Source: an uncultured Actinomycetes bacterium | Lineage (GTDB): Bacteria; Actinomycetota; UBA4738; HRBIN12 | Length of the DNA stretch: 64,000 bases | Assembly (NCBI GenBank): GCA_963704725.1 | Contig: OY969934.1 | Location: 2,048,001 to 2,112,000 of the forward strand | Reading direction: 5' to 3' | Part shown: one piece after another, positions 36,833 through 54,886 of the stretch | Numbering within the stretch: the first letter of the stretch is position 1 | How the letters are laid out: each line of letters opens with the position of its first letter | The notes under the pieces: generated by a model | Told to the model about the DNA's origin: nothing | Seen by the model: only the letters and a program-made list of their open reading frames with translations | Databases searched by the model: none | Program-made: the position numbers and the translations under genes

Positions 36833-37480
36833 CTACGGGTCCAGGCAGAGCGTGAAGCTCTGGTCCCCGAACAGGAACCGCGCGCACCCGTCGTCGATGT
36901 TCACGAGCTTGAAGTTCTCCGCGAACAGGGCGCCCTCCTCGACGGTCCACGTGTCGTGGTCCACGACGACCTGGAGCTTCCTCCCGTTGCCGGCGATCGA
37001 GTCGAGCACCACGTGGTGGCCGCCGATCGTGATCTCGTTCGTGGGAGGCGGGGGCGGCGGGGGCGGCGGTGTCGTCGGCGGGGCCGTCGTCGGCGGTGCG
37101 GTGGTCGGCGGGGCCGTCGTCGGCGGTGCGGTGGTCGGCGGGCCCGTCGTCGGCGGTGCCGTGGTCGGCCCGGTGGCGCCAGTGGGGCCGACGCTGCCGC
37201 TCGGGGTCTCGGTCGCGAGGCCGGGCGGGATCGAGAACGGATCCCGGCCTCCGGCCAGGTCCACGGGCGGCAGCGTCTCGCGGGGCGTGGGGGACTCGGA
37301 GACGGACGGCGTCGCGCTCGGCGCCGGACCGGTCACCGTCGTCGTCGGACCGGTCGGCGATGCGTTGTCGCCCTCTCCTCCCCCTCCCAGCACGGTCGTG
37401 ACCAAGAAGTAGACGAGCGCCAGGCCGGCGACCACGCCGAGCACCTGGAGCATGCGCTTGTCGCGGGGGGTCAGGGTCAT
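36833..37480 (-). CDS. Membrane-anchored Pro/Thr-rich protein in the PilP position
   Basis: TM helix, GRDPF motif, TTAPP repeats, small C-terminal domain with two Cys; ATGA-coupled to pilO. Confidence 0.7.
37045..37170. repeat. 15-nt tandem repeats encoding (TTAPP)n plus poly-Pro
   Basis: GTCGTCGGCGGTGCG/GTGGTCGGCGGGGCC-type units repeated about six times. Confidence 0.85.
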
Positions 37481-38121
37481 GTGGCGGCTCCTGTGGTGGA
37501 CGTCGGCCCGGTGGTACCGCTCGGCGCGATGGCCCCGCCCTCTTGCGGTCCCGGCTGCGACCCCGGACCGGAGCTGATGTCCGTCGTGTAGAACTCGATC
37601 GTGATCTGCATCGACAGGGACGTCGTCGTGGTCGTCGCAGAGGCCTCGGTGGCCGGCGCCATCGTGATGCTCAACACCTTCGCGGCGCGCGGGAGGGTCT
37701 CCATCAGGAACAGGAACTGATCGAGCGAGAAGTAGTTGCCCGTGACCGAGATCTGGGACGGGATGATCGAGAAGGTGGACGAGGCGTCCGCGGTGGGCGT
37801 TCCGGGCGTGAACGAGAAGAAGTCGACCGCCGAACGGTCCGCCGCACCCTGCAGCAGGCCGAACAGCGCCGGCAGGTCGGCCGTCGGCGGGATCTGCTCC
37901 TCGATCTGCGCGATCTGACGCTCGGTCTCTGGCGCGTTCGCCTGCGCCTCCTGGAGGGCCCGAAGCTGGTTCTGGAGCGTGAGCTCCTGGTCCTCGGCGG
38001 CCGTGAGGTCGTCCTGGACCTCCCCGACCTGTCCCATCTTCGGCAGGACGAGGATCATGACGAGGAGCACCGCGATCAGCGCGATCGCCCCGCCGGCGAT
38101 GAGCGGTGCGCGGCGATTCAC
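37477..38121 (-). CDS. pilO: Type IV pilus alignment protein PilO
   Basis: TM helix + coiled coil, [24 protein letters not shown]; follows pilN. Confidence 0.82.
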
Positions 38122-38750
38122 GGCTGCGTCCCTCCTTGCCCACGCTCCGTGGTGGCGATCGCCGTCAGGTCGAGCCCGCTCGCGAAGGTGTAGATCCTCG
38201 AGAACGCCGCGCTCTCGGCCGCGCTCGTCACCCAGGGGTTGACCCACCCCTTCACCTGCTCGAGACGGGTCAGCCAGGTGGCGATCGTGTCCGTTCCTCC
38301 CGCCACGCCGTCGAACGTGAGGTTCCCGATCAGCGTGCTCTCCGCGGTCTCCGGCGTCGGCGCGGTCGCGCCGCCGGTCGGCGTCGTGACCTGCCCGGAC
38401 AGGCTCGTCAGATAGGAGTCGTCGGGGATCACGCGCGAGACGTCGAGGAGGGCGCTCGACCACGACACCTCGTTGAGGAAGAGCGTGCCGACGAGCTGCT
38501 GCTTGCCCGCGAGCTGTGCCTGAAGCGTGGCGAACTCCTGGAGCCCACCGATCTGCGACGTGAGCTGGGCGTTCTTGTCGTTCTGCGTCGCCAGGTCGTC
38601 CTGGACCCCGGCCAGCCGCTGGCTCTGCGTGAAGTAGAAGACGCCGATCAGCGCCAGCACGGCGAGCCCGGCGGCCACGACGAGCGACGTCGTCCGGCGG
38701 ATCTTCTGGCGCTCACGGAGCTCGGGGGGGAGGAGGTTGACCTGGCTCAC
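38118..38750 (-). CDS. pilN: Type IV pilus alignment protein PilN
   Basis: N-terminal VNLLP motif, TM helix, coiled coil, WS..L..V...IP. Confidence 0.88.
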   Translation of the reverse strand: MSQVNLLPPELRERQKIRRTTSLVVAAGLAVLALIGVFYFTQSQRLAGVQDDLATQNDKNAQLTSQIGGLQEFATLQAQLAGKQQLVGTLFLNEVSWSSALLDVSRVIPDDSYLTSLSGQVTTPTGGATAPTPETAESTLIGNLTFDGVAGGTDTIATWLTRLEQVKGWVNPWVTSAAESAAFSRIYTFASGLDLTAIATTERGQGGTQP

Positions 38751-39844
38751 GACCGCCTCCGCTCCTGGATCGCGAGACCGACGGCAACGGCCAGCACGGC
38801 CTCGGCCTCGGCCGACGCCTCCGGGGTCAGGTCCAGCTCGGACTTGACGCGCTCGAACAGCCTCCCCCGCTCGACCTGCACCGGGATCCGCTCCTGCAGG
38901 AGCTCGACGAATCCGTCCAGACGGGACCCGCCGCCGCTCACCACGACGCGGGCGATCCGCGCGCCGGGGACCTGCGCCGCATAGAACTCGAGCGACGACC
39001 GGATCTCGTCCACGAAGCTCCCCGCCCGGGCCAGCGCGAGCCGATGGACCTCGTCCAGGCTCGGGAGCTCCGGAGGCGCCGCCGGCGCTCCGCTCTCGTC
39101 CGGCGGCGGGGGCACGACGGGCTCGCCGCGCTTCAGCGCCTCGGCCACGTCGTCGTCGATGTTGAGCCCGCGCGCGATCGCGAGCGTCACGTCGCGGCCG
39201 CCCGAGGGCAGGATCCGGACGAAGCGGGTCACGCCCCGGTCGTGCACGCAGATGCTCGTCACGTGGGCGCCGACGTCGATCACGGCCTCGTCGCCCTGCG
39301 ACTCCAGATCCAGCCCCACGTCGCCGCCGCCGATGGCGCGGACCGCGGCGAACGGTGTGAGGTCGATGCCCTGGGGGTCGAGCTTGGCGGCCAGCGCCGC
39401 CGAGACCAGCGCGCTGACCATCGACTTGTTGGCGGCGACCAGCAGGATCCGCTCCATGCGGCGTCCGCCCTGATCCATCTCGCCCAGGGCGTCGAAGTCG
39501 AGCACGGCGTCCTCCGCCGCCATGGGGATGAACTCCTGGACCTGGAACGCGAGCGAGTCCCGGAGCTCCTTCTCGGGGAGCCACGGGAGCGAGACCTCGC
39601 GGACGACCACCCGCTGGTTGCCGACTCCGAGGTAGACCTGCTTCGCCTTCACGCCCGCCTGGCTCCACAGGTTGCGGAGGGCGTCGGCCACGACCTCGGG
39701 CTGGCGCACCTCGCCGGCCTCGACGGCCCCGGGCGGCAGCGGCACCTGGGCGGCGCGCACGACCACGGGGGTGTCTCCCCCGGCCACCTCCGCCACGCGG
39801 ACGGCGGTCGAACCCACGTCGACGCCGATCCTGGTCCGGGCCAC
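38747..39844 (-). CDS. pilM: Type IV pilus actin-like protein PilM
   Basis: IGVDVGS, QEFIP, IDVGA, EIRSSLEFY, SGGGS, AVAVGLA. Confidence 0.92.
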   Translation of the reverse strand: MARTRIGVDVGSTAVRVAEVAGGDTPVVVRAAQVPLPPGAVEAGEVRQPEVVADALRNLWSQAGVKAKQVYLGVGNQRVVVREVSLPWLPEKELRDSLAFQVQEFIPMAAEDAVLDFDALGEMDQGGRRMERILLVAANKSMVSALVSAALAAKLDPQGIDLTPFAAVRAIGGGDVGLDLESQGDEAVIDVGAHVTSICVHDRGVTRFVRILPSGGRDVTLAIARGLNIDDDVAEALKRGEPVVPPPPDESGAPAAPPELPSLDEVHRLALARAGSFVDEIRSSLEFYAAQVPGARIARVVVSGGGSRLDGFVELLQERIPVQVERGRLFERVKSELDLTPEASAEAEAVLAVAVGLAIQERRRS

Positions 39845-40059
39845 TACGCTCCCTCCACCTGCCGCTGCTCCAGGTACCGATCCATGTCCGACTCCCGGAT
39901 CCGGTAGTTCTTGCCCACCCGGATCGCCGGGAGCTCGCCGCCTTTGATCAGGCGGTACACCGTCATGTTCGAGACCCGCATCGTCGCGGCCACCTCGGCC
40001 ACGGTGAGCAGCCGGTCGCCCGCCTGCCGTCCCGACCACCCTCCCGATCGCCGCGACAC
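39844..40059 (-). CDS. Small Xis/BldC-like (MerR-type) HTH DNA-binding protein, copy 2
   Basis: LLTVAEVAATMRVSNMTVYRLIKGGELPAIRVGKNYRI; stop overlaps pilM GTG. Confidence 0.88.
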   Translation of the reverse strand: MSRRSGGWSGRQAGDRLLTVAEVAATMRVSNMTVYRLIKGGELPAIRVGKNYRIRESDMDRYLEQRQVEGA

Positions 40060-40075
40060 GCTGTTGTTGCCTCCC

Positions 40076-40267
40076 TCAGACCGACCGCTCGGAGAGGTAT
40101 CGGTCCACGTCCGACTCCCGGATCCGGTAGTTCTTGCCCACCCGGATCGCCGGGAGCTGCCCCGCCTTGATCAGGCGGTACACCGTCATGTTCGAGACCC
40201 GCATCGTCGCCGCCACCTCACCGACCGTGAGGAGCCGGTCACCGACGAACGGTCGTCGCTTGCCCAT
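40076..40267 (-). CDS. Small Xis/BldC-like (MerR-type) HTH DNA-binding protein, copy 1
   Basis: LLTVGEVAATMRVSNMTVYRLIKAGQLPAIRVGKNYRI. Confidence 0.88.
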   Translation of the reverse strand: MGKRRPFVGDRLLTVGEVAATMRVSNMTVYRLIKAGQLPAIRVGKNYRIRESDVDRYLSERSV

Positions 40268-40386
40268 CTCTCACATCTTTCACACTTAGCCCATCCGCCA
40301 CACTTGCCTCTTGTGTCACAACCCTCACACCTGCTCCATCCGCCCCTGGAGTCCCAGGGTCCCGCACCGTAACAAGAGCCACATCT
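40261..40386. repeat. Phased degenerate 9-bp direct-repeat array
   Basis: tgcccatct ctcacatct ttcacactt agcccatcc gccacactt gcctcttgt gtcacaacc ctcacacct gctccatcc ... gtcccaggg ... gtaacaaga gccacatct, all at 40261+9n. Confidence 0.75.
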
Positions 40387-40394
40387 GTCGTCAA
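40366..40394 (-). promoter_or_regulatory. Housekeeping-sigma promoter for HTH-HTH-pilMNO(P)
   Basis: TTGACG-N17-TACGGT with extended TGn. Confidence 0.6.
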
Positions 40395-40429
40395 TCACCC
40401 CTATGACCTACATTCGGCACGATAAGCTG

Positions 40430-40447
40430 AATTACATATATGTAATT
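40430..40447. promoter_or_regulatory. Perfect 18-bp AT-rich palindrome (candidate operator)
   Basis: AATTACATATATGTAATT in a GC-rich background. Confidence 0.65.
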
Positions 40448-40505
40448 AGCAGAAATCGTCAGAAACCCCAGAAGTAACGGCGAGACGGCTCGGGTCGGGT
40501 CCGGT

Positions 40506-41285
40506 CTAGGCGCCGATCAGGCGCAGGTAGGCGTCCGCGATCTGCCGGCCGGCCAGGACCGCCGCGGCGGCCCCGAGCGCCAACGACGGACCGTACGGGA
40601 GGGCGCTCTTCCGGCTCGCCCCCGCGACGAGCGCGACGATCGCCGCCACTCCCCCGACCAGGATCCCCACCCCCGCCGCCACGGCGACGTAGCGGAGCCC
40701 GAGCGCACCCAGGACGGCCCCGGAGACGGCTGCGAGCTTGACGTCCCCCATGCCCAGGCCGCGTGGCGCGATCAGCGCGATGAGGAGCAGTCCCCCGCCG
40801 TAGGCGAGGAACCCGATACCCGCACGTCCGAGGTCCAGCGGAGCCCCGGCCAGCCGCGCCACGATCAGATAGACGGGGGCGATCACGAGCGACGGGTACA
40901 TGAGCCCGTTCGGGATGATCCGGTGCCGGACGTCGATCACCGCGACCGCCACCAGGATCCCCAGGAAGGGCGCCATCAACACGGCCACCCACGGGTCGTC
41001 GAAGACGAGGGCGGCGGCGACGAAGAGCCCGGCGGTCGCGAGCTCGGTCAGGGGGTAGACCACCGAGATCCTGACCCCGCAGCCGCGGCAGCGGCCCCGA
41101 AGCAGCAGCCACGAGACGACGGGGATGTTGTCGACGTTCCGGAGCTGCGCCCCGCACGACGGGCACCGGGAGCGGGGGCGGATCAGGGACTCCTTCGCCG
41201 GCAGCCGGTGGATCGCCACGGTGAGGAAGCTGCCGAACACGAGCCCGAACGGGATCGCGATGATCAGCCGGATCGCGGTGTCCAA
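40506..41285 (-). CDS. pilD: Prepilin peptidase / N-methyltransferase
   Basis: GSFL, RSRCPSC, NIPVVSWLLLRGRCRGC, YPLTEL, ID, GMGDVKL, PYGP; TTG start approximate. Confidence 0.94.
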   Translation of the reverse strand: MDTAIRLIIAIPFGLVFGSFLTVAIHRLPAKESLIRPRSRCPSCGAQLRNVDNIPVVSWLLLRGRCRGCGVRISVVYPLTELATAGLFVAAALVFDDPWVAVLMAPFLGILVAVAVIDVRHRIIPNGLMYPSLVIAPVYLIVARLAGAPLDLGRAGIGFLAYGGGLLLIALIAPRGLGMGDVKLAAVSGAVLGALGLRYVAVAAGVGILVGGVAAIVALVAGASRKSALPYGPSLALGAAAAVLAGRQIADAYLRLIGA

Positions 41286-41311
41286 GGCGGGCGCCAGTCT
41301 AGGGGTGGCCG

Positions 41312-43576
41312 CTACGGCGCGTCCGCCGGGAACTCGGCGGACTGCTCTCCCCAGGTCACGACCTGCCACGCCGACGCCACCGGGTCGAGGAAGTGCGGAG
41401 GCGAGTCGTACTTCAGCCGCTGGTCGTAGCTGTAGTCCTTGGCGTAGCCCGAAGTGGCCGAGCTTCCCGAGAAGACCCCGACGGGTCCCCGGTACTTCTG
41501 CGCGATCGCGCCGTTGACCGAGAGGAGCGACGCGGCCGCCGAGTAGTCGTCGAAGGGTCGTCCGAGATTGTAGTTCTGGACCCCGAACGAATGCGCCACG
41601 GTGACCAGCGCGGCGCTGATGCTCGGGCCGCGGTTGCTGGTGGCTCCGGTCAGCGTGGCCATCGTCGACGTGCCGGGGACCGATCCGCTGAACAGGGACG
41701 GAACGGTAGCCGTCGTGCCGAGCGCGGGGGTCTTCAAGTTGCAGTGGTCGTTCGACGACGAAGCCGTTCCGTCGCAGGTCGTCACGGTCGCAGGGTCTCC
41801 GGGGACACCCTTCACCGACTCCGCGACGGATGCGGAACAGCCGGAGCAGGAGGGTGCGGACATGTGAGATCCGGTCATCGTCGGGTTCACGTCCGTGGCG
41901 GCCTGCGCTCCGATGAACGTCACGGCGTAGGTCCTGGTGCTCCCGGACCCGCTGCCGGTCACGCTGATGTCCCCGCTCCCGAGGGCGGCGAGGTTGGCCA
42001 GGGCCGTGGCGATGCGCGAGGCGGTGGTGCTGTTGGTGCTGCTGTAGCTGATGTTCGCGGTGGTCTGACAGCTGGCGGAGGCCGTGCAGTAGGTGAGCGT
42101 GAACGTGTCTCCGAACGACGCGCTCGTCAGCGTGATCGTCTGGATCTCGTTGACCGAGGCGACGAAGTCGGCCGGGTCGTTCGGATCGGCGACCGCGTGG
42201 TAGACGTTGATGAAGTTGTTGGCGACCAGCCCGAGCAGGTCGGTGCTCCCCGAGTACGCCGTGCTCCCGAACACGATGATGTTGTTCTCGGCCGCGATCG
42301 TGAGGCGGCCGTGCAGCGTCCCCTGGACGAACGCGTCACCGTTCCGGCACCCGTACCCGGTGGGAGTCGTGTTCGGATCGAGCGGTGTGACGTCGTTCTT
42401 CTGTGGGAATCCGAGCGGGTGGGTCCGGAAGGGCGCTCCGCTGCCTCCGATGGCCGGCCGGCTGAAGGGGCAGCCGCTCGTGGCATTGTCTCCCGCCGTC
42501 GGGACGTTCTGAACGTAGACCACGCCACCTCCGCTGGTCGGCAGCGTGAACCTGGTGGTCGTGTACTTCTGGAACATGACCTCCGCGGCGGGCGCGCCGG
42601 GCCACGTGCAGTAGACCTGCCTGGTGAACGGGCTGATGACGTCCATGGTGCCGTCGCTGTTCATGGAGATGGCGGTCGGGCCCGTGAACAGGCACCCGGT
42701 GCCACCCATCGTCGGGTTCGTCTCGTTCTTGATGCTGGCGTTGCTCGGGGGGATCGTCAGCGGGTCCGCGTACCGGGGGTCTCCGGCCGTCGCGAACACG
42801 GGCGTGCCGGAGCCGATCCAGCGGTTCCCCGACGCCGGCTTGTAGCTGGTGCTGGTGTCGCCGTTGAAGTGGGGGCTCCCGCTGATGCGGATCGCGTCGT
42901 TCGTGTGCAGTGGGCCGTCGACCGTGTCTCCCGAGATGAACGTGATGTCGGTGCAGTAGTCGTTGGCCGAGCTGTCGTTGTCGGAGAAGCCGAGCGCCGC
43001 AGTGTCGTTGCGGCTGCTGACGTCCCGGCCGTCGTAGTACCGGTGGTCGCATCGGTGCAGGGTCGCCCAGTTCGAGTTGTTGCTGTTGAACGGGCTCGGA
43101 TACAGCGCGGTGTCGGTCGTCTCGAGATCGGTGAAGTAGAGGTAGTCGAGGAAGTTGCGCCGTCGCAGGCTCGCGGCGACCGAACGCGTGACGCTCCCTA
43201 CCTTGCCCGTCGCGGTGATCTTGATGGTTCCGGTCGAGGCCAGATCGCTCGTGCTCGTCGAGTAGCGGAAAGAGGCGTCGCTCGACTCGCCCGGGATCGG
43301 CACCCACGTCGTGAACGCCTGGTTCCCGTCGGGCGGGAGGTTGGTGCTCGAGTACTGCCAGTACGAGCCGTCCTGGTTCAGGTGGAACAGGTAGTCATCG
43401 ATCCCCGCCTCTGCGGCCGCGAGCGCCGCGTTCCAGTCCTGATCCCGCGCCGAGAGGTCGCGCGAACCGACCGCGTAGGACATGACTCCGGTGATGAGCG
43501 CGAGGACCAGGATCATCGACAGCATGACGACGACGAGGACGTAGCCACCTTCCTCACGCCGGATCCTGGTCATCAT
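41312..43576 (-). CDS. Large PilX-like minor pilin / putative tip adhesin
   Basis: EEGG|YVLVVV prepilin-like start lacking Glu5, A..AAEAG, GPLHTND, GRLTIAAENNI, GAIAQKYRG, GY.KDYSYD.RL...PP.F. Confidence 0.75.
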   Translation of the reverse strand: MMTRIRREEGGYVLVVVMLSMILVLALITGVMSYAVGSRDLSARDQDWNAALAAAEAGIDDYLFHLNQDGSYWQYSSTNLPPDGNQAFTTWVPIPGESSDASFRYSTSTSDLASTGTIKITATGKVGSVTRSVAASLRRRNFLDYLYFTDLETTDTALYPSPFNSNNSNWATLHRCDHRYYDGRDVSSRNDTAALGFSDNDSSANDYCTDITFISGDTVDGPLHTNDAIRISGSPHFNGDTSTSYKPASGNRWIGSGTPVFATAGDPRYADPLTIPPSNASIKNETNPTMGGTGCLFTGPTAISMNSDGTMDVISPFTRQVYCTWPGAPAAEVMFQKYTTTRFTLPTSGGGVVYVQNVPTAGDNATSGCPFSRPAIGGSGAPFRTHPLGFPQKNDVTPLDPNTTPTGYGCRNGDAFVQGTLHGRLTIAAENNIIVFGSTAYSGSTDLLGLVANNFINVYHAVADPNDPADFVASVNEIQTITLTSASFGDTFTLTYCTASASCQTTANISYSSTNSTTASRIATALANLAALGSGDISVTGSGSGSTRTYAVTFIGAQAATDVNPTMTGSHMSAPSCSGCSASVAESVKGVPGDPATVTTCDGTASSSNDHCNLKTPALGTTATVPSLFSGSVPGTSTMATLTGATSNRGPSISAALVTVAHSFGVQNYNLGRPFDDYSAAASLLSVNGAIAQKYRGPVGVFSGSSATSGYAKDYSYDQRLKYDSPPHFLDPVASAWQVVTWGEQSAEFPADAP

Positions 43577-45678: not shown

Positions 45679-46141
45679 TCACGACCATCCGCCCGTGCAC
45701 TCCGCCGTCTGGTCCACCGCCGAGAACGCCGCTCCCTGCCCCTTGTCGAACGCGGGGCTGTTCGCCAGCTGGCGGAGGCAGAAGTACCTCCCCGTGCGAG
45801 ACCTGGAGATCAGCAGCAGCGCCGACCCCGTAGCCTCCTGGATGGTGATCTCCTCGACGGCGGGATCCGTGTCGGCGGCCCTCCAGTCGAGCGCGGGCTC
45901 CACGGAGACGGCCGCGGCCAGCGTGAAGGCGTCGTACGACCCCTCCCCCGCCCACGTGGAGAGGGCGGCGGCGAGCGCCGGTGCGCAGGTTCGACTGCGT
46001 CGCCCGGTCCTCCGCCCGCTCCCTCGCGCCGAGGAAGGTGGGCAGGGCGATGGCGATCAGGATGCCGATGATGAGGACGACCACCATCAGCTCGATGAGG
46101 GTGAAGCCCTCTTCCTGGTCTCGTTCGTGTAGACGTCGCAT
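45679..46141 (-). pseudogene. Type IV pilin 2, +1 frameshift near 45980 (pseudogene or sequence error)
   Basis: EEG|FTLIELMVVVLIIGILIAIALP...QSNLRT then shifted frame ALAAA...EPALDW...YFC...ECTGGWS*; span is 3n+1. Confidence 0.8.
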
Positions 46142-46163
46142 CCTGCTCTCACTCCATGTCGGA

Positions 46164-46190
46164 AGGGGGCGGCCCGACAGGCCGCCCCCT
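46164..46190 (-). terminator. Hairpin after pilin 1
   Basis: AGGGGGCGGCC-TGTCG-GGCCGCCCCCT, 22 nt downstream of the shifted-frame TAG at 46212. Confidence 0.65.
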
Positions 46191-46211
46191 CGACGTTCGG
46201 ATCGGTGCGGC

Positions 46212-46680
46212 CTACCAGCTGCCGGTGCAGGTCGCGAGCGTGGTCGCAGTGCCCGACGTCGCCCTCGTTCTGCCCGCCGCCCGCCGAAGAGACGTTCTTG
46301 GCGATGCAGAAGACGGAGCCGGACGCGCTGATTGCGTTCAGGGCGATGTCGGTGGCCGTGGCCCCGCCGATGTAGACCGTGTCCAACGACTGGCCGACCG
46401 CGGATGCGCCGTCGTCCCACGTCAGCGACGGCTCGATGCTGCCGGCCGCCGACGCCGTGAAGCCGAGGTACGTGTCGCCGTCGGTGAAGAACGTGTCCGC
46501 CGCGGCGATCGCGTTCCGCAGGTTCGACTGTGCGGCCCGGTCCTGTGCCCGAGTCCTGGCGCCCAGGAAGGTCGGCAGAGCGATGGCGATCAGGATGCCG
46601 ATGATCAGAACGACCACCATGAGCTCGATGAGGGTGAAGCCCTCGTCGTCCTTCCTGCGCTCCCAGAAGCGCTGAAGCAT
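46212..46680 (-). CDS. pilA: Probable major type IV pilin, +1 frameshift near 46261
   Basis: Strong SD AGGAGGAGGTGA; DEG|FTLIELMVVVLIIGILIAIALP; shifted frame gives TSGTATTLATCTGSW*, matching pilin 2 CTGGW. Confidence 0.82.
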
Positions 46681-46742
46681 GGAGTCACCTCCTCCTTCTA
46701 TGTCTCTAGGCGCGTCACCGTGACGCGCTTCCTTCCAGGGTT

Positions 46743-46769
46743 TTCGGTCTCCGGCGCCGGGGGCTTGAC
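46743..46769 (-). promoter_or_regulatory. Sigma28/FliA-like promoter for pilin 1
   Basis: GTCA-N17-ACCGAA. Confidence 0.45.
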
Positions 46770-46881
46770 CCCGGTTAAGCGCTTTGGGCAGGAATGGCTC
46801 GAACGGAGTAGTCACCGGGGGCCGGGCGTGGAGGGAGACCGGCGGGCGGCCGTGCCGAACGGGCCCACCGGTCTCCGGGCG

Positions 46882-49262: not shown

Positions 49263-50948
49263 TCACTTCACCACCCTCGCGATCTCCTCGATGGACGTCA
49301 GGCCCGCGCGGGACTTCTCGAGCCCGTCGTCGCGGAGTGTCATCATTCCCTGCTCGATGGCCACGGCCCGGATCGTGTCCGAGGACGCGCGCTCGACCGT
49401 GAGCCTCTCGATCTCTTCGGACATCAACATCACTTCATAAAGCCCGATCCGTCCGCGGTATCCCGTCGTGGAACAGGCGGGACACCCCACGGCCCGGTGG
49501 AACTTGGCCCCCTCGGGGATCTGGGACTCGCTGAACCCCGCCTCGATCAGCTCCGCCGGCTCCGGCTCGAAGGGCTCGGCACACCGCTCGCAGAGCTTGC
49601 GGGCCAGGCGCTGAGCGACCACGCAGTCCACGGCCGAGGCCACCAGGAACGTCTCGACCTCCATCTCGATCAGCCGGGTGATCGCGCTCGGCGCGTCGTT
49701 GGTGTGGAGGGAGGACAGGACGAGGTGGCCGGTGAGGGCCGACTCGACCGCGATCATGGCGGTCTCGCGGTCACGGATCTCACCGATCATGATGATGTCG
49801 GGGTCGGCGCGCAGGATGGAGCGCAGCGCCGAGGCGAACGTGAGGCCCGCCTTGGGGTTGACCTGGATCTGGTTGACGCCGGCCAGCCGGTACTCGACCG
49901 GGTCCTCGACCGTGATGATGTGCTTGTCGGGGCTGTTCACGATGTTGAGCGTCGCGTACAGCGACGTCGACTTGCCGGAGCCGGTCGGCCCGGTGGCCAG
50001 GATCGCGCCGTAGGGCTTGCGGAAGGCGGCCTCGTACCGCTTGAAGGCGGACTCGAGGAAGCCAAGGTCGGACAGCTGCAAGAGCGCGTTGCTCTTGTCC
50101 AGGATCCGGATGACGACCTTCTCGCCGTACACCGTCGGCAGGGTCGCGACACGCAGGTCCAGCTGCTTGGTGCCCACGCGCATCCCGATCCGGCCGTCCT
50201 GGGGGACCCGTTTCTCCGCGATGTTCATGTCGGCCATCACCTTGAGCCGGCTGATCAGCCCGCCCTGGATGCTCTTGGGCGAGTGCATGACCTCGTGGAG
50301 CACGCCGTCAACGCGGAACCGGACGCGCACGTCCTTCTCGCTCGGCTCGATGTGGACGTCCGAGGCCCGGTCGGCGACGGCCTGGGTCATGATGGCCTGG
50401 ACGAGCTTGACGATCGGGGCGTCCTCGACGGCCGCCTCGACGTCGGCCAGGTCGGTGTCGTCCATGCCCTCGACGGCCTCGGCGGCCAGCGCCTCGACCT
50501 GGTCGCCCATGCCGGAGAACTTGCCGATGGCCTGCTCCACGTCGTTGGCCGTGGCCACGACGGGTTGGACCTCGCGCCCGGTGATCGTGCGGATGTCGTC
50601 GAGCGCGTACACGTTGGCGGGGTCCGACATCGCGACCAGGAGCTTCCCGTCGCGCTCGTCGATGGCGAGCGCCCGGTAGCGGCGGCAGATCGCGTCGGGG
50701 ATCAGGGTCGCGATGCCGGCGTCGATCCGGTAGTCGGACAGGTCGACGAACTCCAGGCCGACCTGCTCGGCGAGGGCGCGGACCAGATCGCGTTCGCGGA
50801 TGTAGCCGAGGTCGATGAGGACGCGGCCGAGCGACTTCGGCGTGTTCTGGTGCTCATCGAGCGCGCGGTCGAGCTGCTCCTGGTCCAGGAGCCCCTGCTC
50901 GAGCAGGATCTGACCGAGCTGCTTCGGCTTTCGCTTCGTCGTTGCCAT
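49263..50948 (-). CDS. pilB: Type IV pilus extension ATPase PilB with N-terminal MshEN-like domain
   Basis: LGQILLEQGLL / LGRVLIDLGYI; ASDVHIEP, GPTGSGKS, LRADPD, CERC..GCPAC..GYRGR. Confidence 0.96.
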   Translation of the reverse strand: MATTKRKPKQLGQILLEQGLLDQEQLDRALDEHQNTPKSLGRVLIDLGYIRERDLVRALAEQVGLEFVDLSDYRIDAGIATLIPDAICRRYRALAIDERDGKLLVAMSDPANVYALDDIRTITGREVQPVVATANDVEQAIGKFSGMGDQVEALAAEAVEGMDDTDLADVEAAVEDAPIVKLVQAIMTQAVADRASDVHIEPSEKDVRVRFRVDGVLHEVMHSPKSIQGGLISRLKVMADMNIAEKRVPQDGRIGMRVGTKQLDLRVATLPTVYGEKVVIRILDKSNALLQLSDLGFLESAFKRYEAAFRKPYGAILATGPTGSGKSTSLYATLNIVNSPDKHIITVEDPVEYRLAGVNQIQVNPKAGLTFASALRSILRADPDIIMIGEIRDRETAMIAVESALTGHLVLSSLHTNDAPSAITRLIEMEVETFLVASAVDCVVAQRLARKLCERCAEPFEPEPAELIEAGFSESQIPEGAKFHRAVGCPACSTTGYRGRIGLYEVMLMSEEIERLTVERASSDTIRAVAIEQGMMTLRDDGLEKSRAGLTSIEEIARVVK

Positions 50949-50985
50949 GCAGGCGGACGTCCTTTGGGCCTAGGTCGACCTATCC

Positions 50986-51012
50986 ATCGGCAGCGTCCAC
51001 GCCGACCTGTAG
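50986..51012 (-). promoter_or_regulatory. Sigma28/FliA-like promoter for pilB
   Basis: CTAC-N17-GCCGAT. Confidence 0.5.
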
Positions 51013-51050: not shown

Positions 51051-53832
51051 TCAAGAGGGGGCCCGCCATCTGCCGGATGCCGGTTCCGCGGGCGCCTCGG
51101 GGACCTCGATCGGGACGGCTGGGGTCGCCGCCGCCCCGGCCGAGCGGGCCCCGGACCGGGATCGCTCGAGCAGGTCCCGGGCGACGGCGGCCTGCGCCCG
51201 GGCCCCTCGGCGGTCGAACCCCCGCAGGGCTCTGCCGGCCACGGACACCGCCTCGTTCTCCCGACCGGCGAGCCCCCGCACCCGCGCCAGGTCCAGGAGG
51301 GCCTCCCCCCGCGTGGGCCAGGCGTCGGTCTGCTCCGCCAGCCGGACCGCGATCCGGGCCGCGGACTCGGCCTCGGAGAACCTGCCGAGCAGCGCCAGCG
51401 CCTTGGCCCGGGCCGTCCGCCAGCCCACCTGGGTGGGGAAGTCCTCGGGAGCCGCCTCGCGTTCGGCGAGCGCGCCCAGCTCCAGGGTCTTCTCCCCCAT
51501 CTCCCGCATGGCCAGGACGTGCGCGAGGGACGACGCAGCCTGGGCGCGGATGCCGTCGCGCCCCGGGCCGGGCTCGAGCTCGAGCACGCCGCGGAACGCG
51601 ACCTCGGCGCCCTCCAGGTCGCCGGCCAACGCCTCGACGGTCCCTCCCCGCCACCGGCACAGCGCGGCCGGCTCCTTCAGACCGAGATCCTCGAGGGCCG
51701 CCAAGGCGCCGGAGGCCAGGCGGCGGGCCTCGTCCATATGGCCACGGCGCGCCTGGAGGACGGCGAGGACGCCCTCGACGTCCTGCCGGGCGGGCCTCTC
51801 GTCCCCCACGCGCTCACGGATCGCCTCGCAGCAGGCGATGGCTTCCGCGATGGGAAGGGGGCCGTTCAGGGTCGCCCACGCCAGGTCGCGGAGCGCCTCC
51901 AGCTCCTCGGCGACCAGACCGGCGTTGGCGGCGTGCCGGGCCGCCCGCTCGGTCGCTTCGGCGCAGCGGGCCAGGTTCCCCCATCGCAGATACACCGCAC
52001 CGCGCAGCGCGAAGGCCCACGACAGGCCCTGTTCGTCGCCGGTCTCCTCGAACACCTGGATCGCCCGACTCACCGTGGTGTGTGCATGCTCGAGCGCGTC
52101 CAGGCCGTAGCCCCCGCGCAGGCCCAGCTTCGCCGAGACCACCTTCGCCCGCCACTCCACGCCGCGTGCGCCGAGCTTCCTCGCCGAGCTCGCGGCGGCG
52201 GCGAGCAACGCGGCGGCGGCCTCGTCGCCGACCGCGGCGAGGGCGATGCCCGAACGCAGGACGAGATCGGATCGGCGCGGATCGGAGGGCGGCACCAGCG
52301 TGGACGCGCGGTGCAGCAACGAGGCGGCGCCCCGGCCGTTCCCGAGCCGCTCGGCCCTGGCCGCCGCCGCCTCGAGCAGGGTCGCGGCGCGTTCGCCGAG
52401 CTCCCGGGTCGACCCCTCGTCGTGCCCCAGCCCGGTCCGCAGCTCGAAGGCCGAGACGAGGTGGGCGGCGATCGCCTCGGCGAAGCGAGGGAGCCGGTCC
52501 CCCGCCACACCCTCGAGCCACGTCGCGCAGTGCTCGTGCACCTCGGCGCGCGCCTCCTCGCGAACGCACGCCGCGGCGGCCTCTCGAACGAGCGCGTGGC
52601 GGAAGGCGAACCAAGCTCGGCCGTCCTCGGCCACATCGCGCACGATGAGACCTTTGCGGGCCAGCTCCTCGAGATGCTCGGCGAGGGCCGGCCGGTGCTC
52701 CGGCGGGAGGAGCTCCGCCACGAGGTCGGCGGGGAACACCTCGCCGACGACGGCCGACAGGCCCGCCACGATCCGTTCCTCGGGCGACGCCCGATCCAGG
52801 CGGGCTCGCAGGACCGCCTCGGCTCCCGGCGGGGTGGGTGGCGCGGAGAGATCGAGGGTCGGCACGACCCGCCCCTGGACCACCCGGACCAGCTCCTCCT
52901 CGACGAGCATCGCGAGCAGGTGTTCGGCGACGAACGGGCTGCCCCCCGAGGTCTCGACGACGAGCCGTCGCACCTCCTCGTCCAGCTCGCTCCCGCCCAC
53001 GAGACCGGCGGCCAGGGACGCCAGGTCGTCGTCCCCGAGCGGCTCCAGACGCGCGATGCCGAGATCGCCCGACGCCTCCACCGCCGGGCCGAACTCCCTT
53101 GCGGCGCAGAGCACCACGAGGGGTACCGCCGGCATCCCGGCCGCCACGGCCCGGATCAGATGCCAGAAGGAGGACTCCACCCGGTCGGCGTCGTCCACCC
53201 ACACCACCAACGCCCGGTCGCCGGCGACCGTCGACAGGATCCGGGAGAGCTCGCGAGGTGTCTCCTGGGCCCGCGCCACCGCCTCGGGGAGCGCGAGGAC
53301 GCCCGCCATCCACTCCACCTCGGAGCGATCCCGCGGGTCCACGAAGAGCGCCTCGAGCTTGCGCCGGGCATCGGCGGCCGGATCACGGTCCCCGATCCCT
53401 GCCACCTGCTCCACGATCTCGGCGAGCGGCCACGCCGTCCCGATCTCCTGGACCGGACGGCAGCGGACCCGCAGCACCCGGGCTTCTCCGCCGGCCTCGA
53501 GCCTGCGCAGCGACTCCTCGACGAGGGCCGTCTTGCCGAGCCCGGGCTCGCCGGCGATCCCCACGAGGCAGCCGATCCGGTCCGCGACGGCGCGATCCAG
53601 GATCTCGCGCAGGTCGGCGCGCTCCCGGTCGCGGCCGATCAGGGGGACCTCGACGACCCGCGCACCGGAGGACGCCGGATGCGGGGGCGCGGAGCGGCTC
53701 CGCGCACTGCTGGCAGAAGCGCGCCGACTCCGAGTTGATCTCGCCGCACGCCGGGCACCGGCTGTGGATCGCTTCCCGGCTCGTCGGAGCGCCCCAGGGG
53801 GCGAAGGAGCCGGAGCGGCCGTCCACGCTCAT
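51051..53832 (-). CDS. Zinc-ribbon + STAND/AAA ATPase + TPR-like protein, +1 frameshift near 53680
   Basis: SD GGGAGG + ATG 53832; CPAC...FCQQC; shifted frame PLIGRDRE, GEPGLGKT, VVWVDD, SGGSPF, FRHALVREAA, helical repeats. Confidence 0.75.
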
Positions 53833-53884: not shown

Positions 53885-54838
53885 CTAGGACTGATCGAAG
53901 CCGCTGGCCTCGAGCAGCTTGGAGAACTCCTGGGCGAGCAGGAACCTGTCGACCTCGCCCTCCCGCTCCCGTCGCGGCTCCACGTCGAACTCGACCTCGG
54001 GTTGGGACTGACCCTCGGGCCGTGTCTCCGGCGGTACCTCGGGCTGGGGTTCGGCGGCCGTCTCGGTCGGGGCCGCCGGCCCCTGCGGGGAGATCTGCTC
54101 GGCCGACGCCGGAGCCGGCGCGGGGGCCGGCGCGAGACCACTCGCGGGGTCCGGGAGGGACAGCTCCTGCGGCGGGAGGATCCACGTTCGGGTCTCGGAA
54201 CGACGCTCCGGCGGCGCCAGCTGCGTGGACGCCTCCTCCTGCGGGGCGAGGATCCACGAGACGGGCCGGCGCTCGGGCTCGGCCGGCGGCGCCTCCTCGC
54301 TTTCGGGGGCAAGGATCCACGACAACGGCCGGGCGTGGCGCTCCGAAGGCTCGGGGGCGATCGCCTCCGGGGGCGCGGCGTACTGCAGCGCGGCGTCCTG
54401 CACCTCGAGCCGCATGACCGACGGCGCGTGGACGGGCTGACCCGCGCTCTTGTGCAGCGGCGTCCGCGGCTTGCTCTTCGGGGCGTCGGCCACGTCGGGG
54501 AGCTTCAACGCCTCTCGCTTGGCTCGCGCCTCCTCGGCCGAGAGCAGGAGCTGCTGGAGCTGGTCGATCACGAGTCCGGGCCTGGCGCTCGCCTCCGACA
54601 GCACGAACGCCGCGTAGGGGCCCCGCCGGACGTACACCCACAGCTCGTCGCCGAACTCGACGAACCCCTTCTCGGGGTCGCCGAGGGCGGCGAAGCGCAG
54701 CCAGGCTCGCTGAACGGGGCTCTCATCCGACGGCGGATACGACCCCACGACGAGGCCGTCACGAGTCAGGATGATGCAGCCCTTCAGCTGGCCGACGCTC
54801 ACCGCGATGCGCGCCGCGATTGCGGAGAAATCGTCCAT
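53885..54838 (-). CDS. Roadblock/LC7 (MglB-like) domain protein with Pro/Glu-rich repeat tail
   Basis: LKGCIILTRDGLVVGS, ARPGLV; three WIL(A/P)P repeats; C-terminal helix VDRFLLAQEFSKLL. Confidence 0.65.
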   Translation of the reverse strand: MDDFSAIAARIAVSVGQLKGCIILTRDGLVVGSYPPSDESPVQRAWLRFAALGDPEKGFVEFGDELWVYVRRGPYAAFVLSEASARPGLVIDQLQQLLLSAEEARAKREALKLPDVADAPKSKPRTPLHKSAGQPVHAPSVMRLEVQDAALQYAAPPEAIAPEPSERHARPLSWILAPESEEAPPAEPERRPVSWILAPQEEASTQLAPPERRSETRTWILPPQELSLPDPASGLAPAPAPAPASAEQISPQGPAAPTETAAEPQPEVPPETRPEGQSQPEVEFDVEPRREREGEVDRFLLAQEFSKLLEASGFDQS

Positions 54839-54851
54839 GGTTGTGGGCTTT

Positions 54852-54886
54852 CTCCGATGCATCGGAGGGATGCCGACGCACTTGAG
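54852..54886 (-). promoter_or_regulatory. Sigma28/FliA-like promoter overlapped by a 16-bp palindrome
   Basis: CTCA-N16-TCCGAT; CTCCGATGCATCGGAG at 54852-54867. Confidence 0.5.

Follow-up and report, generated by a model that had tools for sequence, protein, structure and literature searches.

The Streptomyces regulator BldC (PDB 6AMA and 6AMK; Schumacher et al. 2018, PMC5859096; Bush et al. 2019, PMC6428758) is described as a single winged helix-turn-helix (HTH) domain of about 65 residues, without a dimerisation or effector domain. According to the text of PMC5859096, its DNA unit is exactly 9 bp long with the consensus AATTXXXX(C), four protomers sit head-to-tail on the direct repeats of a 36-mer, and such units are read with variable numbers of protomers. 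The DNA contacts given there are made by Arg30 and Lys26 of the recognition helix and by His46, Arg47 and Arg48 of the wing, which reads AATT. The same text notes that it is unknown what BldC homologues do outside Streptomyces. For excisionases, including lambda Xis (2IEF, 1RH6), mycobacteriophage Pukovnik Xis (4J2N) and RdfS (8DGL), a cooperative head-to-tail assembly along direct repeats is also reported, according to PDB entry titles and the text of PMC5859096 and PMC12266134. The mycobacteriophage D29 protein Gp36, small and MerR-like/Xis-like, binds non-AT-rich direct repeats, represses downstream genes and oligomerises weakly off DNA, as described in the text of PMC12266134. In Rubrobacter, the WhiG-(c-di-GMP)-RsiG system controls type IV pilus genes, and pilus clusters of early-branching Actinomycetota use flagellar-type promoters, with TAAA at -35, about 15 nt, and GCCGATAA at -10 (main text of PMC8325347).

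Here we compare these systems with a locus in a 64,000-nt stretch of actinobacterial DNA (the window). A conserved row of 9-base repeats at this locus probably allows two small HTH proteins to align along the promoter of their own genes and so to control the expression of pilus genes across an uncultured class of soil actinobacteria.

Two HTH genes head a pilus operon

The genes belong to a type IVa pilus cluster of monoderm Actinomycetota. Pfam identified T2SSE with MshEN (pilB), T2SSE (pilT), T2SSF (pilC), Peptidase_A24, PilM_2 and PilN, and three ORFs of the cluster carry or adjoin N_methyl motifs. On the minus strand, pilD is the final gene of the upstream block pilB-pilT-pilC-pilin-minor pilin-pilD. 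It is followed by a 238-nt spacer, HTH1, HTH2 and pilM (Table 1), and then by pilN, pilO, a proline-rich ORF and aroC (chorismate synthase). The PilO assignment is unconfirmed by Pfam (0 families for 37477-38140). A sigma-70 and terminator scan of 39800-40600 called no terminator-like site 3' of pilD.

Table 1. Features of the HTH-pilM locus (window coordinates).
Feature	Position	Strand	Evidence
pilM	38747..39844	-	PilM_2 E 3e-40, PilN E 1.1e-4
HTH2, 71 aa, tandem paralogue of HTH1	39844..40059	-	HTH_17 E 2.4e-17
HTH1, 63 aa, excisionase-family winged HTH	40076..40267	-	HTH_17 E 7.6e-17
Main array (slots 6-14, nine of 9 bp each; consensus on the coding strand A-G-W-T-G-T-K-R-M)	40261..40341	-	periodicity, slot counts, logo, alignment
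Putative sigma-70-like promoter TTGACG-N17-TACGGT, TGT before -10 (extended -10)	40366..40394	-	sequence
GCCGAATG, resembling flagellar/WhiG-type -10 (GCCGATAA)	40411..40418	-	sequence
Perfect 18-bp palindrome AATTACATATATGTAATT (TTAC-N6-GTAA)	40430..40447	.	sequence
pilD, prepilin peptidase	40506..41369	-	Pfam A24_N_bact E 1.4e-33, Peptidase_A24 E 3e-12

The first-pass annotation had noted two near-identical HTH genes between pilD and pilM; gene calls agree, and the two proteins are 86% identical over 56-57 residues. It had also proposed that HTH2 is translationally coupled to pilM. The overlap is indeed present: the HTH2 stop codon TAG (39844-39846) shares a base with the pilM GTG start (39842-39844) in TAGTG, GGAGGGAG stands directly 5' of it, and the pilM ribosome-binding site falls inside the C-terminal QVEGA codons of HTH2. 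Coupling itself fits this arrangement at the sequence level only. HTH2 has its own ribosome site, GGGAGG, in the 16-nt gap that separates it from HTH1. Synteny with pilM, put forward earlier as a check, is kept throughout: pilM lies immediately 3' of the HTH in 80/80 fetched loci. The pilus HTH itself is present in 128 of the 151 genomes of the class (E<=1e-18).

Both proteins carry the excisionase-family domain, scoring above the cut-offs of HTH_17 (PF12728; 61.8 and 63.3 bits, cut-off 27) and TIGR01764 (68.2 bits for HTH1 and 66.9 for HTH2, cut-off 28.8). Unlike excisionases, however, they are encoded by stable chromosomal genes of a pilus cluster, with no integrase, attachment site or mobile element near the HTH genes, and their proposed role is transcription control rather than recombination directionality. 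Both fall below the cut-off of the narrow BldC subfamily (NCBIfam NF033787, HTH_BldC, at least 77 bits), with 32.6 bits for HTH1 and 27.1 for HTH2. True BldC-type proteins (100-107 bits) occur elsewhere in the genome, in addition to the pilus HTH, in four of 21 related genomes, and none above the cut-off was found among the 13 searched genomes of the window's genus. Since the pilus HTHs score below the BldC cut-off and coexist with true BldC in related genomes, they constitute a separate, paralogous subfamily. This coexistence weakens the idea that the pilus HTH is the ancestor or an orthologue of BldC.

In sequence and predicted fold, the BldC/Xis-like identity suggested by the first-pass annotation is borne out. 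The sequence matched the BldC structure 6AMK with E 7.9e-5, and the AF2 model of HTH1 (pLDDT 88.3) is built of a strand, two helices, a wing of two strands and a helix at the C-terminus. The first seven fold matches in the PDB were all BldC-DNA chains (rmsd 0.9-1.7 Å, 43-45% identity, query-normalised TM 0.73-0.74), and the excisionases named above, of the same fold class, occupied ranks 8-42. Being single MerR-type winged HTHs without a coiled-coil or effector domain, the pilus proteins have the domain architecture of the broad BldC structural family (Schumacher 2018).

Among 73 sequences, the recognition helix (VSNMTVYRLIK) and the wing (RVGKNYRIR) show little or no variation. In an alignment to 6AMK, with BldC numbering by hand count, Arg30 corresponds to the invariant R31, Lys26 to M27, and the wing residues His46, Arg47 and Arg48 to N46, Y47 and R48. 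Since the minor-groove wing residues His46 and Arg47 are replaced by Asn and Tyr, and Lys26 by Met, the AATT readout of BldC is not transferable to the pilus HTH. The retained Arg would be compatible with BldC-like docking, and the altered wing with a different, non-AT repeat.

A phased 9-bp array from promoter to start codon

The first-pass annotation had parsed 40261-40386 into 14 slots on a strict 9-bp grid, most of them fitting nYC(A/C)CAYYY. Autocorrelation of this interval against 2000 dinucleotide shuffles gave z = 3.72, 4.17 and 4.50 at lags 9, 18 and 27; no other lag from 1 to 30 exceeded z 3, and the maximum z was reached by 0/2000 shuffles. On the coding strand, T-G-K occupies slot positions 4-6 in 11/14 slots (shuffle mean 2.1, maximum 5; 11 reached in 0/5000). 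The nYC(A/C)CAYYY pattern, scored on that strand, is exact in 5/14 slots and has one mismatch in four more; slots 2-5 and 9 do not fit it. The strict 9-nt period is confirmed; the unbroken 14-slot grid is not, as slots 3-5 are off motif and relatives do not keep it. The main array reaches and covers the HTH1 start codon (ATG 40265-40267), and two further units (slot 1, 40378-40386; slot 2, 40369-40377) lie in the promoter spacer.

The elements of the putative promoter are present as first annotated, with TTGACG at 40389-40394, a 17-nt spacer and TACGGT at 40366-40371. A promoter scan of 39800-40600 with an E. coli-type consensus called no site; it misses TACGGT because just 3/6 bases match TATAAT. 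The arrangement TTGAC-N16-19-TWNNNT recurs in 35/39 close and 23/32 distant loci (0.6 expected), and at least one TGTK lies between -35 and -10 in 32/36 close loci. No RNA sequencing run was found to contain the region.

No second array of this kind was found in the 3.45-Mb genome, whether by at least 4/6 slots or by a three-slot weight matrix, which speaks against a regulon of other arrays of at least that length in the organism's own genome. We also rejected a coding repeat or upstream ORF: reading frames across the array differ from locus to locus, and in a genome of 71% GC the conserved T would sit at codon wobble positions (GAT, GTT).

The array is conserved under selection. In related genomes, lag-9 periodicity with z above 3 was present in 16/25 loci, and in the public scan in 33/73, counts that are not independent, since related genomes are kin. 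In the public scan, the periodicity is mostly confined to loci whose PilM is at least 53% identical (30/40, vs 4/33 below); the HTH is retained in the more distant loci despite the scarcity of lag-9 periodicity. Two loci with pilD and pilM but without the HTH have no long array. Pooled over 96 loci, 10 of them duplicates, the strand counts of TGTK are 510 (coding) vs 97 (other), and 172/414 consecutive spacings are exactly 9; in distant lineages the counts by strand are 115 vs 32 and the commonest spacing is again 9. An alignment of ten loci has an invariant G at positions 140, 149, 158, 167, 176, 185, 194 and 203, while the intervening bases vary. In the 43 loci (227 slots) used for the array logo, the last TGTK lies at -8 from the start codon in 16. 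The offset between the promoter-spacer pair and the leader array was 0 in 13, -1 in 26 and -2 in 9 of 54 counts in related loci, and some distant loci have repeat units upstream of or across -35.

A neutral 9-bp minisatellite or compositional accident without function could in principle produce such a row: the last two units are close copies, and the number of repeats varies among relatives from 2 to 8 slots. However, Tandem Repeats Finder detects only the last 2.2 copies (90% matches), so the array repeats are degenerate, too much so for recent slippage, and a minisatellite as the sole explanation is rejected. Across genera and families, neither the phase nor the TG core changes while the bases around them do, and the period-9 array is unique in the genome, with nothing at periods 7, 8, 10, 11 or 12. 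We consider a functionless origin scarcely credible.

A proposed autoregulatory filament

With a probability of roughly 0.55, we favour a reading in which head-to-tail binding of the HTH proteins to the repeats autoregulates the HTH-pilMNO operon. HTH1 and HTH2 are small BldC-type winged-helix proteins at the head of the pilMNO(P) operon. We propose that they form head-to-tail multimers on the array DNA in which each 9-bp unit (core TGTK) takes one protomer, with sites at the two units in the promoter spacer and at about nine that cover the 5' leader DNA as far as the start codon. Array occupancy would then track the concentration of the operon's own first product, and a cooperative autoregulation of pilM-pilN-pilO would follow. 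Repression, through occlusion or a roadblock, appears the more likely sign, because the units are placed within the promoter and further downstream.

The likeness to BldC comprises the single winged HTH, the retained recognition-helix Arg and the 9-bp DNA period. The two differ in the repeat core (TGTK here, AATT in BldC), in the wing residues and in array length, where about nine leader units and two promoter units compare with 2-4 for BldC. The array stands at the gene's own promoter and is the sole one in the genome; BldC, by contrast, controls a large regulon. The pilus HTH is fixed at the head of pilMNO, whereas BldC acts in development. The likeness to D29 Gp36 is one of protein type; Gp36 differs in being a phage protein whose GCGGC repeats are spaced 15-19 nt, with no strict 9-bp comb in the text of PMC12266134.

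The HTH might instead bind the array as an activator or architectural factor, with a DNA-bending filament that aids the promoter or a positive feedback that makes an on/off (bistable) pilus switch. BldC is described as both activator and repressor (text of PMC6428758) and as bending DNA by about 50 degrees per dimer (text of PMC5859096), and a palindrome at a fixed distance from TTGAC together with a possible second, WhiG-type promoter (see below) suggests multi-input control. Nevertheless, most units lie downstream of -10 and over the start codon, with two in the spacer, which are typical repressor positions, and we regard activation as distinctly unlikely.

The strand specificity of the motif leads to another alternative, namely that the comb is not the HTH operator and is read by another factor, or acts in the mRNA leader, for instance as a phased UGUK platform that serves an RNA-binding protein or translation control of the HTH, the HTH having its targets elsewhere. 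The comb takes up the presumed 5' leader and its end keeps an almost constant distance to the start codon, in a leader without a clear Shine-Dalgarno beyond the purines of the repeat itself. A structured RNA or riboswitch is, however, rejected: there was no Rfam match at E<=10, the leader folded no better than shuffles (z -0.38), and RNAalifold gave 0 pairs over 16 loci. The hairpin after -10 had a median z of -0.33 per locus and was below -2 in 2/34 loci, so the CCCTGG/CCAGGG hairpin of the window is not a general feature. We know of no RNA-binding system with a 9-nt period, and 9 bp is the measured BldC footprint. Finally, units also occur in the promoter spacer, and those upstream of or across -35 in distant loci would be untranscribed from that promoter. 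A leader or third-factor role is possible but unlikely, and autoregulation by the HTH proteins is preferred.

The first-pass annotation had further suggested that the two paralogues form a co-filament, an idea the comparison does not sustain. Arrays are about equally frequent with one HTH copy and with two (z above 3 at lag 9 in 15/22 and 15/18 loci), no alternating repeat subtypes were found, and the recognition helix and wing are identical between HTH1 and HTH2. Both paralogues probably read the same sequence and would be interchangeable on the array. The N-terminus of HTH1 (KRRPFVGDR) matches the single-copy form of other lineages, and HTH1 is without the C-terminal VEG tail; the N-terminal tail of HTH2 differs. 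Duplication of the HTH is a later event confined to some lineages. The second copies have 80% mean column identity (21 sequences), and 20 of the 21 fall in one weakly supported group of a quick tree (100 rows, SH-aLRT 88; most forks unresolved), a grouping with which a single origin of the duplication would be compatible.

To our knowledge, what is understood of type IV pilus regulation in Actinomycetota goes no further than WhiG-type promoters. Consistent with the earlier impression of an undescribed module, our searches returned no description of an HTH heading pilMNO in the literature covered, which included the main texts of PMC8325347 and PMC5859096. The locus presents a distinct BldC-like subfamily tied to one function (pilMNO) across an uncultured class, with a predicted operator whose 9-bp register is that of the only solved structures. 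It is directly testable with a synthetic gene and synthetic DNA, without culture of the organism, and could show how head-to-tail winged-HTH filaments count repeats and how the dosage of the pilus machinery is set. An invariant G every 9 bp, with free turnover in between, is also a clean natural case in which selection acts on phase and not on sequence.

Elements upstream of the promoter

Two further elements upstream of TTGACG permit a wider reading, which we hold to be improbable: the pilMNO promoter of this class would be an ancestral control node, a single region of 200 bp at which relatives of three developmental regulators of Streptomyces come together. The comb would carry a BldC-type filament, next to a c-di-GMP-gated promoter element of the WhiG type and a BldD-like palindrome. 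The HTH filament, running from promoter to start codon, would then be a cooperative dosage governor of the pilus alignment complex. If so, filamentous actinomycetes would have co-opted such a pilus circuit for their developmental circuits, an origin that has already been proposed for WhiG-RsiG.

As to the WhiG-type element, the window has no TAAA 15-17 nt upstream of GCCGAATG and so no full flagellar/WhiG-type promoter. GCCGAW is present in 30/39 close loci (4.0 expected), and the full TAAA-N15-17-SYCGAW in 2/39 close and 8/32 distant loci (0.1 expected). The genome encodes a FliA/WhiG sigma factor (270.8 bits, cut-off 189.6). The conserved GCCGAW, the full matches in distant loci and the WhiG-family sigma recall the Rubrobacter system; there, in contrast, the switch is a sigma/anti-sigma pair, and no HTH with a repeat array appears in the main text of PMC8325347.

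The palindrome AATTACATATATGTAATT is a candidate site for a dimeric regulator. Its half-sites fit the BldD box, a 13-bp pseudo-palindrome with the consensus TNAC-N5-GTNA (PMC4151990), but its spacer is one base longer, so it is not a BldD box in the strict sense. AATTACATATATGTAATT occurs once in the 3.45-Mb genome and ends 35 nt upstream of TTGAC. The related form TYAC-N6-GTRA is found in 16/39 close and 6/32 distant loci (0.3 expected), and in 16 of the 19 loci with both elements its distance to TTGAC is likewise 35 nt.

A 9-bp repeat array between pilD and the HTH genes

The genes from pilB to aroB are all encoded on the window's minus strand (see table), and the spacer between pilD and HTH1, the first of two small helix-turn-helix genes, has a GC content of 54%, compared with 71% for the window. 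Autocorrelation over 40261-40386 singled out lags 9, 18 and 27 alone (z = 3.72, 4.17 and 4.50), with a maximum z reached by none of 2000 dinucleotide shuffles; the 9-bp periodicity proposed in the first-pass annotation is thus real. On the coding strand, T-G-K occupies the same offset in 11 of the 14 slots (9-bp units), a count reached in none of 5000 shuffles (mean 2.1, maximum 5). The degenerate pattern originally proposed, nYC(A/C)CAYYY, survived in part: five of the 14 slots fit exactly and four more with one mismatch, but slots 2-5 and 9 do not. Tandem Repeats Finder picked up the last 2.2 units alone, so that the array consists of old, degenerate units. Across the 3.45-Mb genome, it is the sole place with at least four of six TGTK slots at period 9, and the sole place with three consecutive slots of at least 6 bits each by weight matrix; the same genome-wide slot scan at periods 7, 8, 10, 11 and 12 found none.

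Features of the pilus locus (window positions)
Feature	Position	Strand	Remarks
CheA-type kinase	55051-57339	+	divergent; Hpt, H-kinase_dim, HATPase_c, CheW
Proline-rich ORF	53885-54862	-	325 aa; near pilB
AAA_16/TPR (STAND-like) protein	51051-53564	-	837 aa; near pilB
GCCGATGG	50984-50991		upstream of pilB; resembles flagellar/WhiG -10
pilB	49263-50948	-	T2SSE + MshEN
pilT		-	after pilB in gene order
pilC		-	after pilT in gene order
Pilin	46087-46815	-	N-methyl motif
Three minor-pilin-like ORFs		-	between pilin and pilD
pilD	40506-41369	-	
pilD-HTH1 spacer	40268-40505		non-coding, 238 nt
Palindrome AATTACATATATGTAATT	40430-40447		perfect, 18 bp, TTAC-N6-GTAA; unique in genome
GCCGAATG	40411-40418		upstream of TTGAC promoter; resembles flagellar/WhiG -10
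HTH1	40076-40267	-	63 aa
HTH2	39844-40059	-	71 aa
pilM	39842-39844 (GTG start)	-	overlaps TAG stop of HTH2
pilN, pilO-like, proline-rich ORFs, then aroC, aroK, aroB		-	downstream of pilM

A pilus-linked relative of BldC

HTH1 and HTH2 both match Pfam HTH_17 (E about 1e-17) and NCBIfam TIGR01764. Among solved structures, BldC is the best sequence relative (6AMK, E 7.9e-5; 6AMA, E 1.1e-4), and chains of BldC-DNA complexes take ranks 1-7 among fold matches to the AlphaFold model (pLDDT 88.3; rmsd 0.9-1.7 Å, identity 43-45%), followed by Pukovnik Xis, RacA, RdfS and lambda Xis, in agreement with the BldC/Xis-like nature first assigned. Against the narrow BldC-subfamily model, however, they score 32.6 and 27.1 bits (cut-off 77), and four genomes of the same order encode proteins of 100-107 bits alongside the pilus HTH. 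Because the cut-off is missed and true BldC coexists, the pilus-linked HTH is, judged by sequence, a subfamily separate from BldC.

As described in PMC5859096, BldC has a per-protomer consensus AATTXXXX(C), the smeA operator holds four 9-bp units for it, and it loads four protomers head-to-tail on a 36-mer with four repeats; the array period here equals this 9-bp footprint. The recognition helix (VSNMTVYRLIK) and wing (RVGKNYRIR), common to HTH1 and HTH2, show little or no variation among 73 sequences, including loci where PilM identity drops to 33%. BldC Arg30 is retained, whereas Met, Asn and Tyr stand in place of Lys26, His46 and Arg47, respectively (residues numbered by our own count on the BldC-HTH alignment), changes in contact residues that would fit a different, non-AT repeat.

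Conservation of the array and of HTH-pilM linkage

Among 41 related genomes, including the window's own, PilM was found in 32, and 30 loci were returned, 28 with sequence upstream of pilM. HTH lies between pilD and pilM in 26 of these 28, as two tandem copies in ten of the 26, and the lag-9 autocorrelation z-score against shuffles (z9) exceeded 3 in 16 of 25 scorable loci. Searching public genomes with HTH1, we kept the best 80 of 135 relatives, all uncultured Actinomycetota MAGs: pilM directly follows HTH in 80/80, and z9 exceeded 3 in 33 of the 73 that extend far enough upstream, in keeping with conserved HTH-pilM synteny and a conserved array. In a re-run by PilM identity, 30 of 40 loci at 53% or above had z9 >3, against 4 of 33 below. 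HTH was present at E<=1e-18 in 128 of 151 genomes of the class as sampled. Genomes marked as unpublished (G011 = L006, G029 = L023, G037) contribute to the related-genome PilM and array, BldC-coexistence, alignment and 128/151 counts, with further ones in the class-wide count; no claim depends on these alone.

A pool of 96 loci (86 distinct, since ten are duplicates) has 510 TGTK occurrences on the coding strand but 97 on the opposite one, with 172 of 414 consecutive spacings exactly 9. The slot logo (227 slots, 43 loci) reads A-G-W-T-G-T-K-R-M; slots were picked by the core, and the flanks (A 0.59, G 0.63, R 0.84) played no part. The clearest single result is the comb in an alignment of ten loci: one G per nine bases is invariant (columns including G140, G149, G158, G167, G176, G185, G194 and G203), and the bases in between vary even among close relatives, which shows selection on phase and core rather than identity by descent.

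In the two exceptional loci, L025 (G023) and L033 (G036), pilD adjoins pilM and the HTH gene is absent. In L025, an apparent remnant of the control region persists in the spacer: GCCCGATAA, TTTGAC and a pair of TGT units at 9-bp distance. Within one related genus, some genomes (G057, G060, G071, G088, G089, G119, G157) carry a further HTH copy (66-69% identity) at a second, distant site.

Promoter units and predicted autoregulation

Of the 39 close loci, 35 carry TTGAC-N16-19-TWNNNT, as do 23 of the 32 distant ones (0.6 expected); in the window, a generic promoter scan did not call it. Usually, TGT precedes the -10 and the promoter spacer holds one or two repeat units. In the window and its nearest relatives these units keep the phase of the leader array, but elsewhere they are offset by -1 or -2; we therefore read promoter units and leader array as separate predicted sites, contrary to the single continuous 14-slot filament suggested at first.

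The most economical reading, to which we give slightly better than even odds (about 0.55), is autoregulation: the operon's first product would polymerise head-to-tail on comb and promoter units, and its occupancy would set transcription of its own operon. The positions of the predicted sites favour repression. The main rival is that the comb acts at the RNA level, or is bound by another factor, as the strand bias of TGTK and the nearly fixed end of the comb near the start codon might suggest; however, the leader gave no RNA structure signal, units also occur in non-transcribed promoter DNA, and the period matches the BldC register exactly. In the literature searched we found no description of an HTH gene heading pilMNO, though a mention in the figures or supplements of PMC8325347 and PMC5859096 is possible.

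Tandem duplication of the HTH gene

In single-copy HTH proteins, KRRPFVGDR at the N-terminus is combined with a C-terminal (R/K)VEG tail. Where there are two copies, HTH1 retains the N-terminus and ends at SERSV, and HTH2 has a new N-terminus and retains the QVEGA tail. In the window, the 16-nt gap between them holds GGGAGG. At 39842-39860, the VEG(A) codons, GTGGAGGGAGCG, contain the pilM ribosome-binding site, with the HTH2 stop and pilM start overlapping as TAGTG, and conservation of the tail may reflect a nucleotide-level (RNA) constraint rather than a protein one. Since arrays are about as frequent in single-copy lineages, the array predates the duplication. The DNA offers no reason to posit two kinds of protomer, as in the proposed co-filament of both paralogues, given this frequency and the lack of alternation between G and T at the K position. 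A quick tree of the copies neither established nor excluded a single origin of the duplication.

Upstream elements and the pilB neighbourhood

The palindrome lies 35 nt 5' of TTGAC in 16 of the 19 loci having both. The half-sites are those of the BldD box TNAC-N5-GTNA (PMC4151990), but the spacer is one base longer here, and the genome encodes a 151-aa HTH_31 + BldD-like_C protein (L117:1261-1713; 27.8 bits, cut-off 27). Flagellar/WhiG promoters drive Rubrobacter pilus genes, and the window shows -10-like elements; more distant loci have a full CTAAAG-N15-GCCGAW directly 3' of the palindrome. In the window's lineage the GCCGAW-type element is 10 nt nearer the palindrome, with the palindrome-TTGAC distance unchanged. 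A FliA/WhiG sigma factor is encoded in the genome (270.8 bits).

At its N-terminus, PilB has an MshEN domain (E 1.4e-23). This type of domain binds c-di-GMP in MshE, and by analogy would fit c-di-GMP control of the pilus. The proline-rich ORF near pilB matched no Pfam family; with the STAND-like protein and the CheA-type kinase, it may form a candidate chemosensory module for the pilus.
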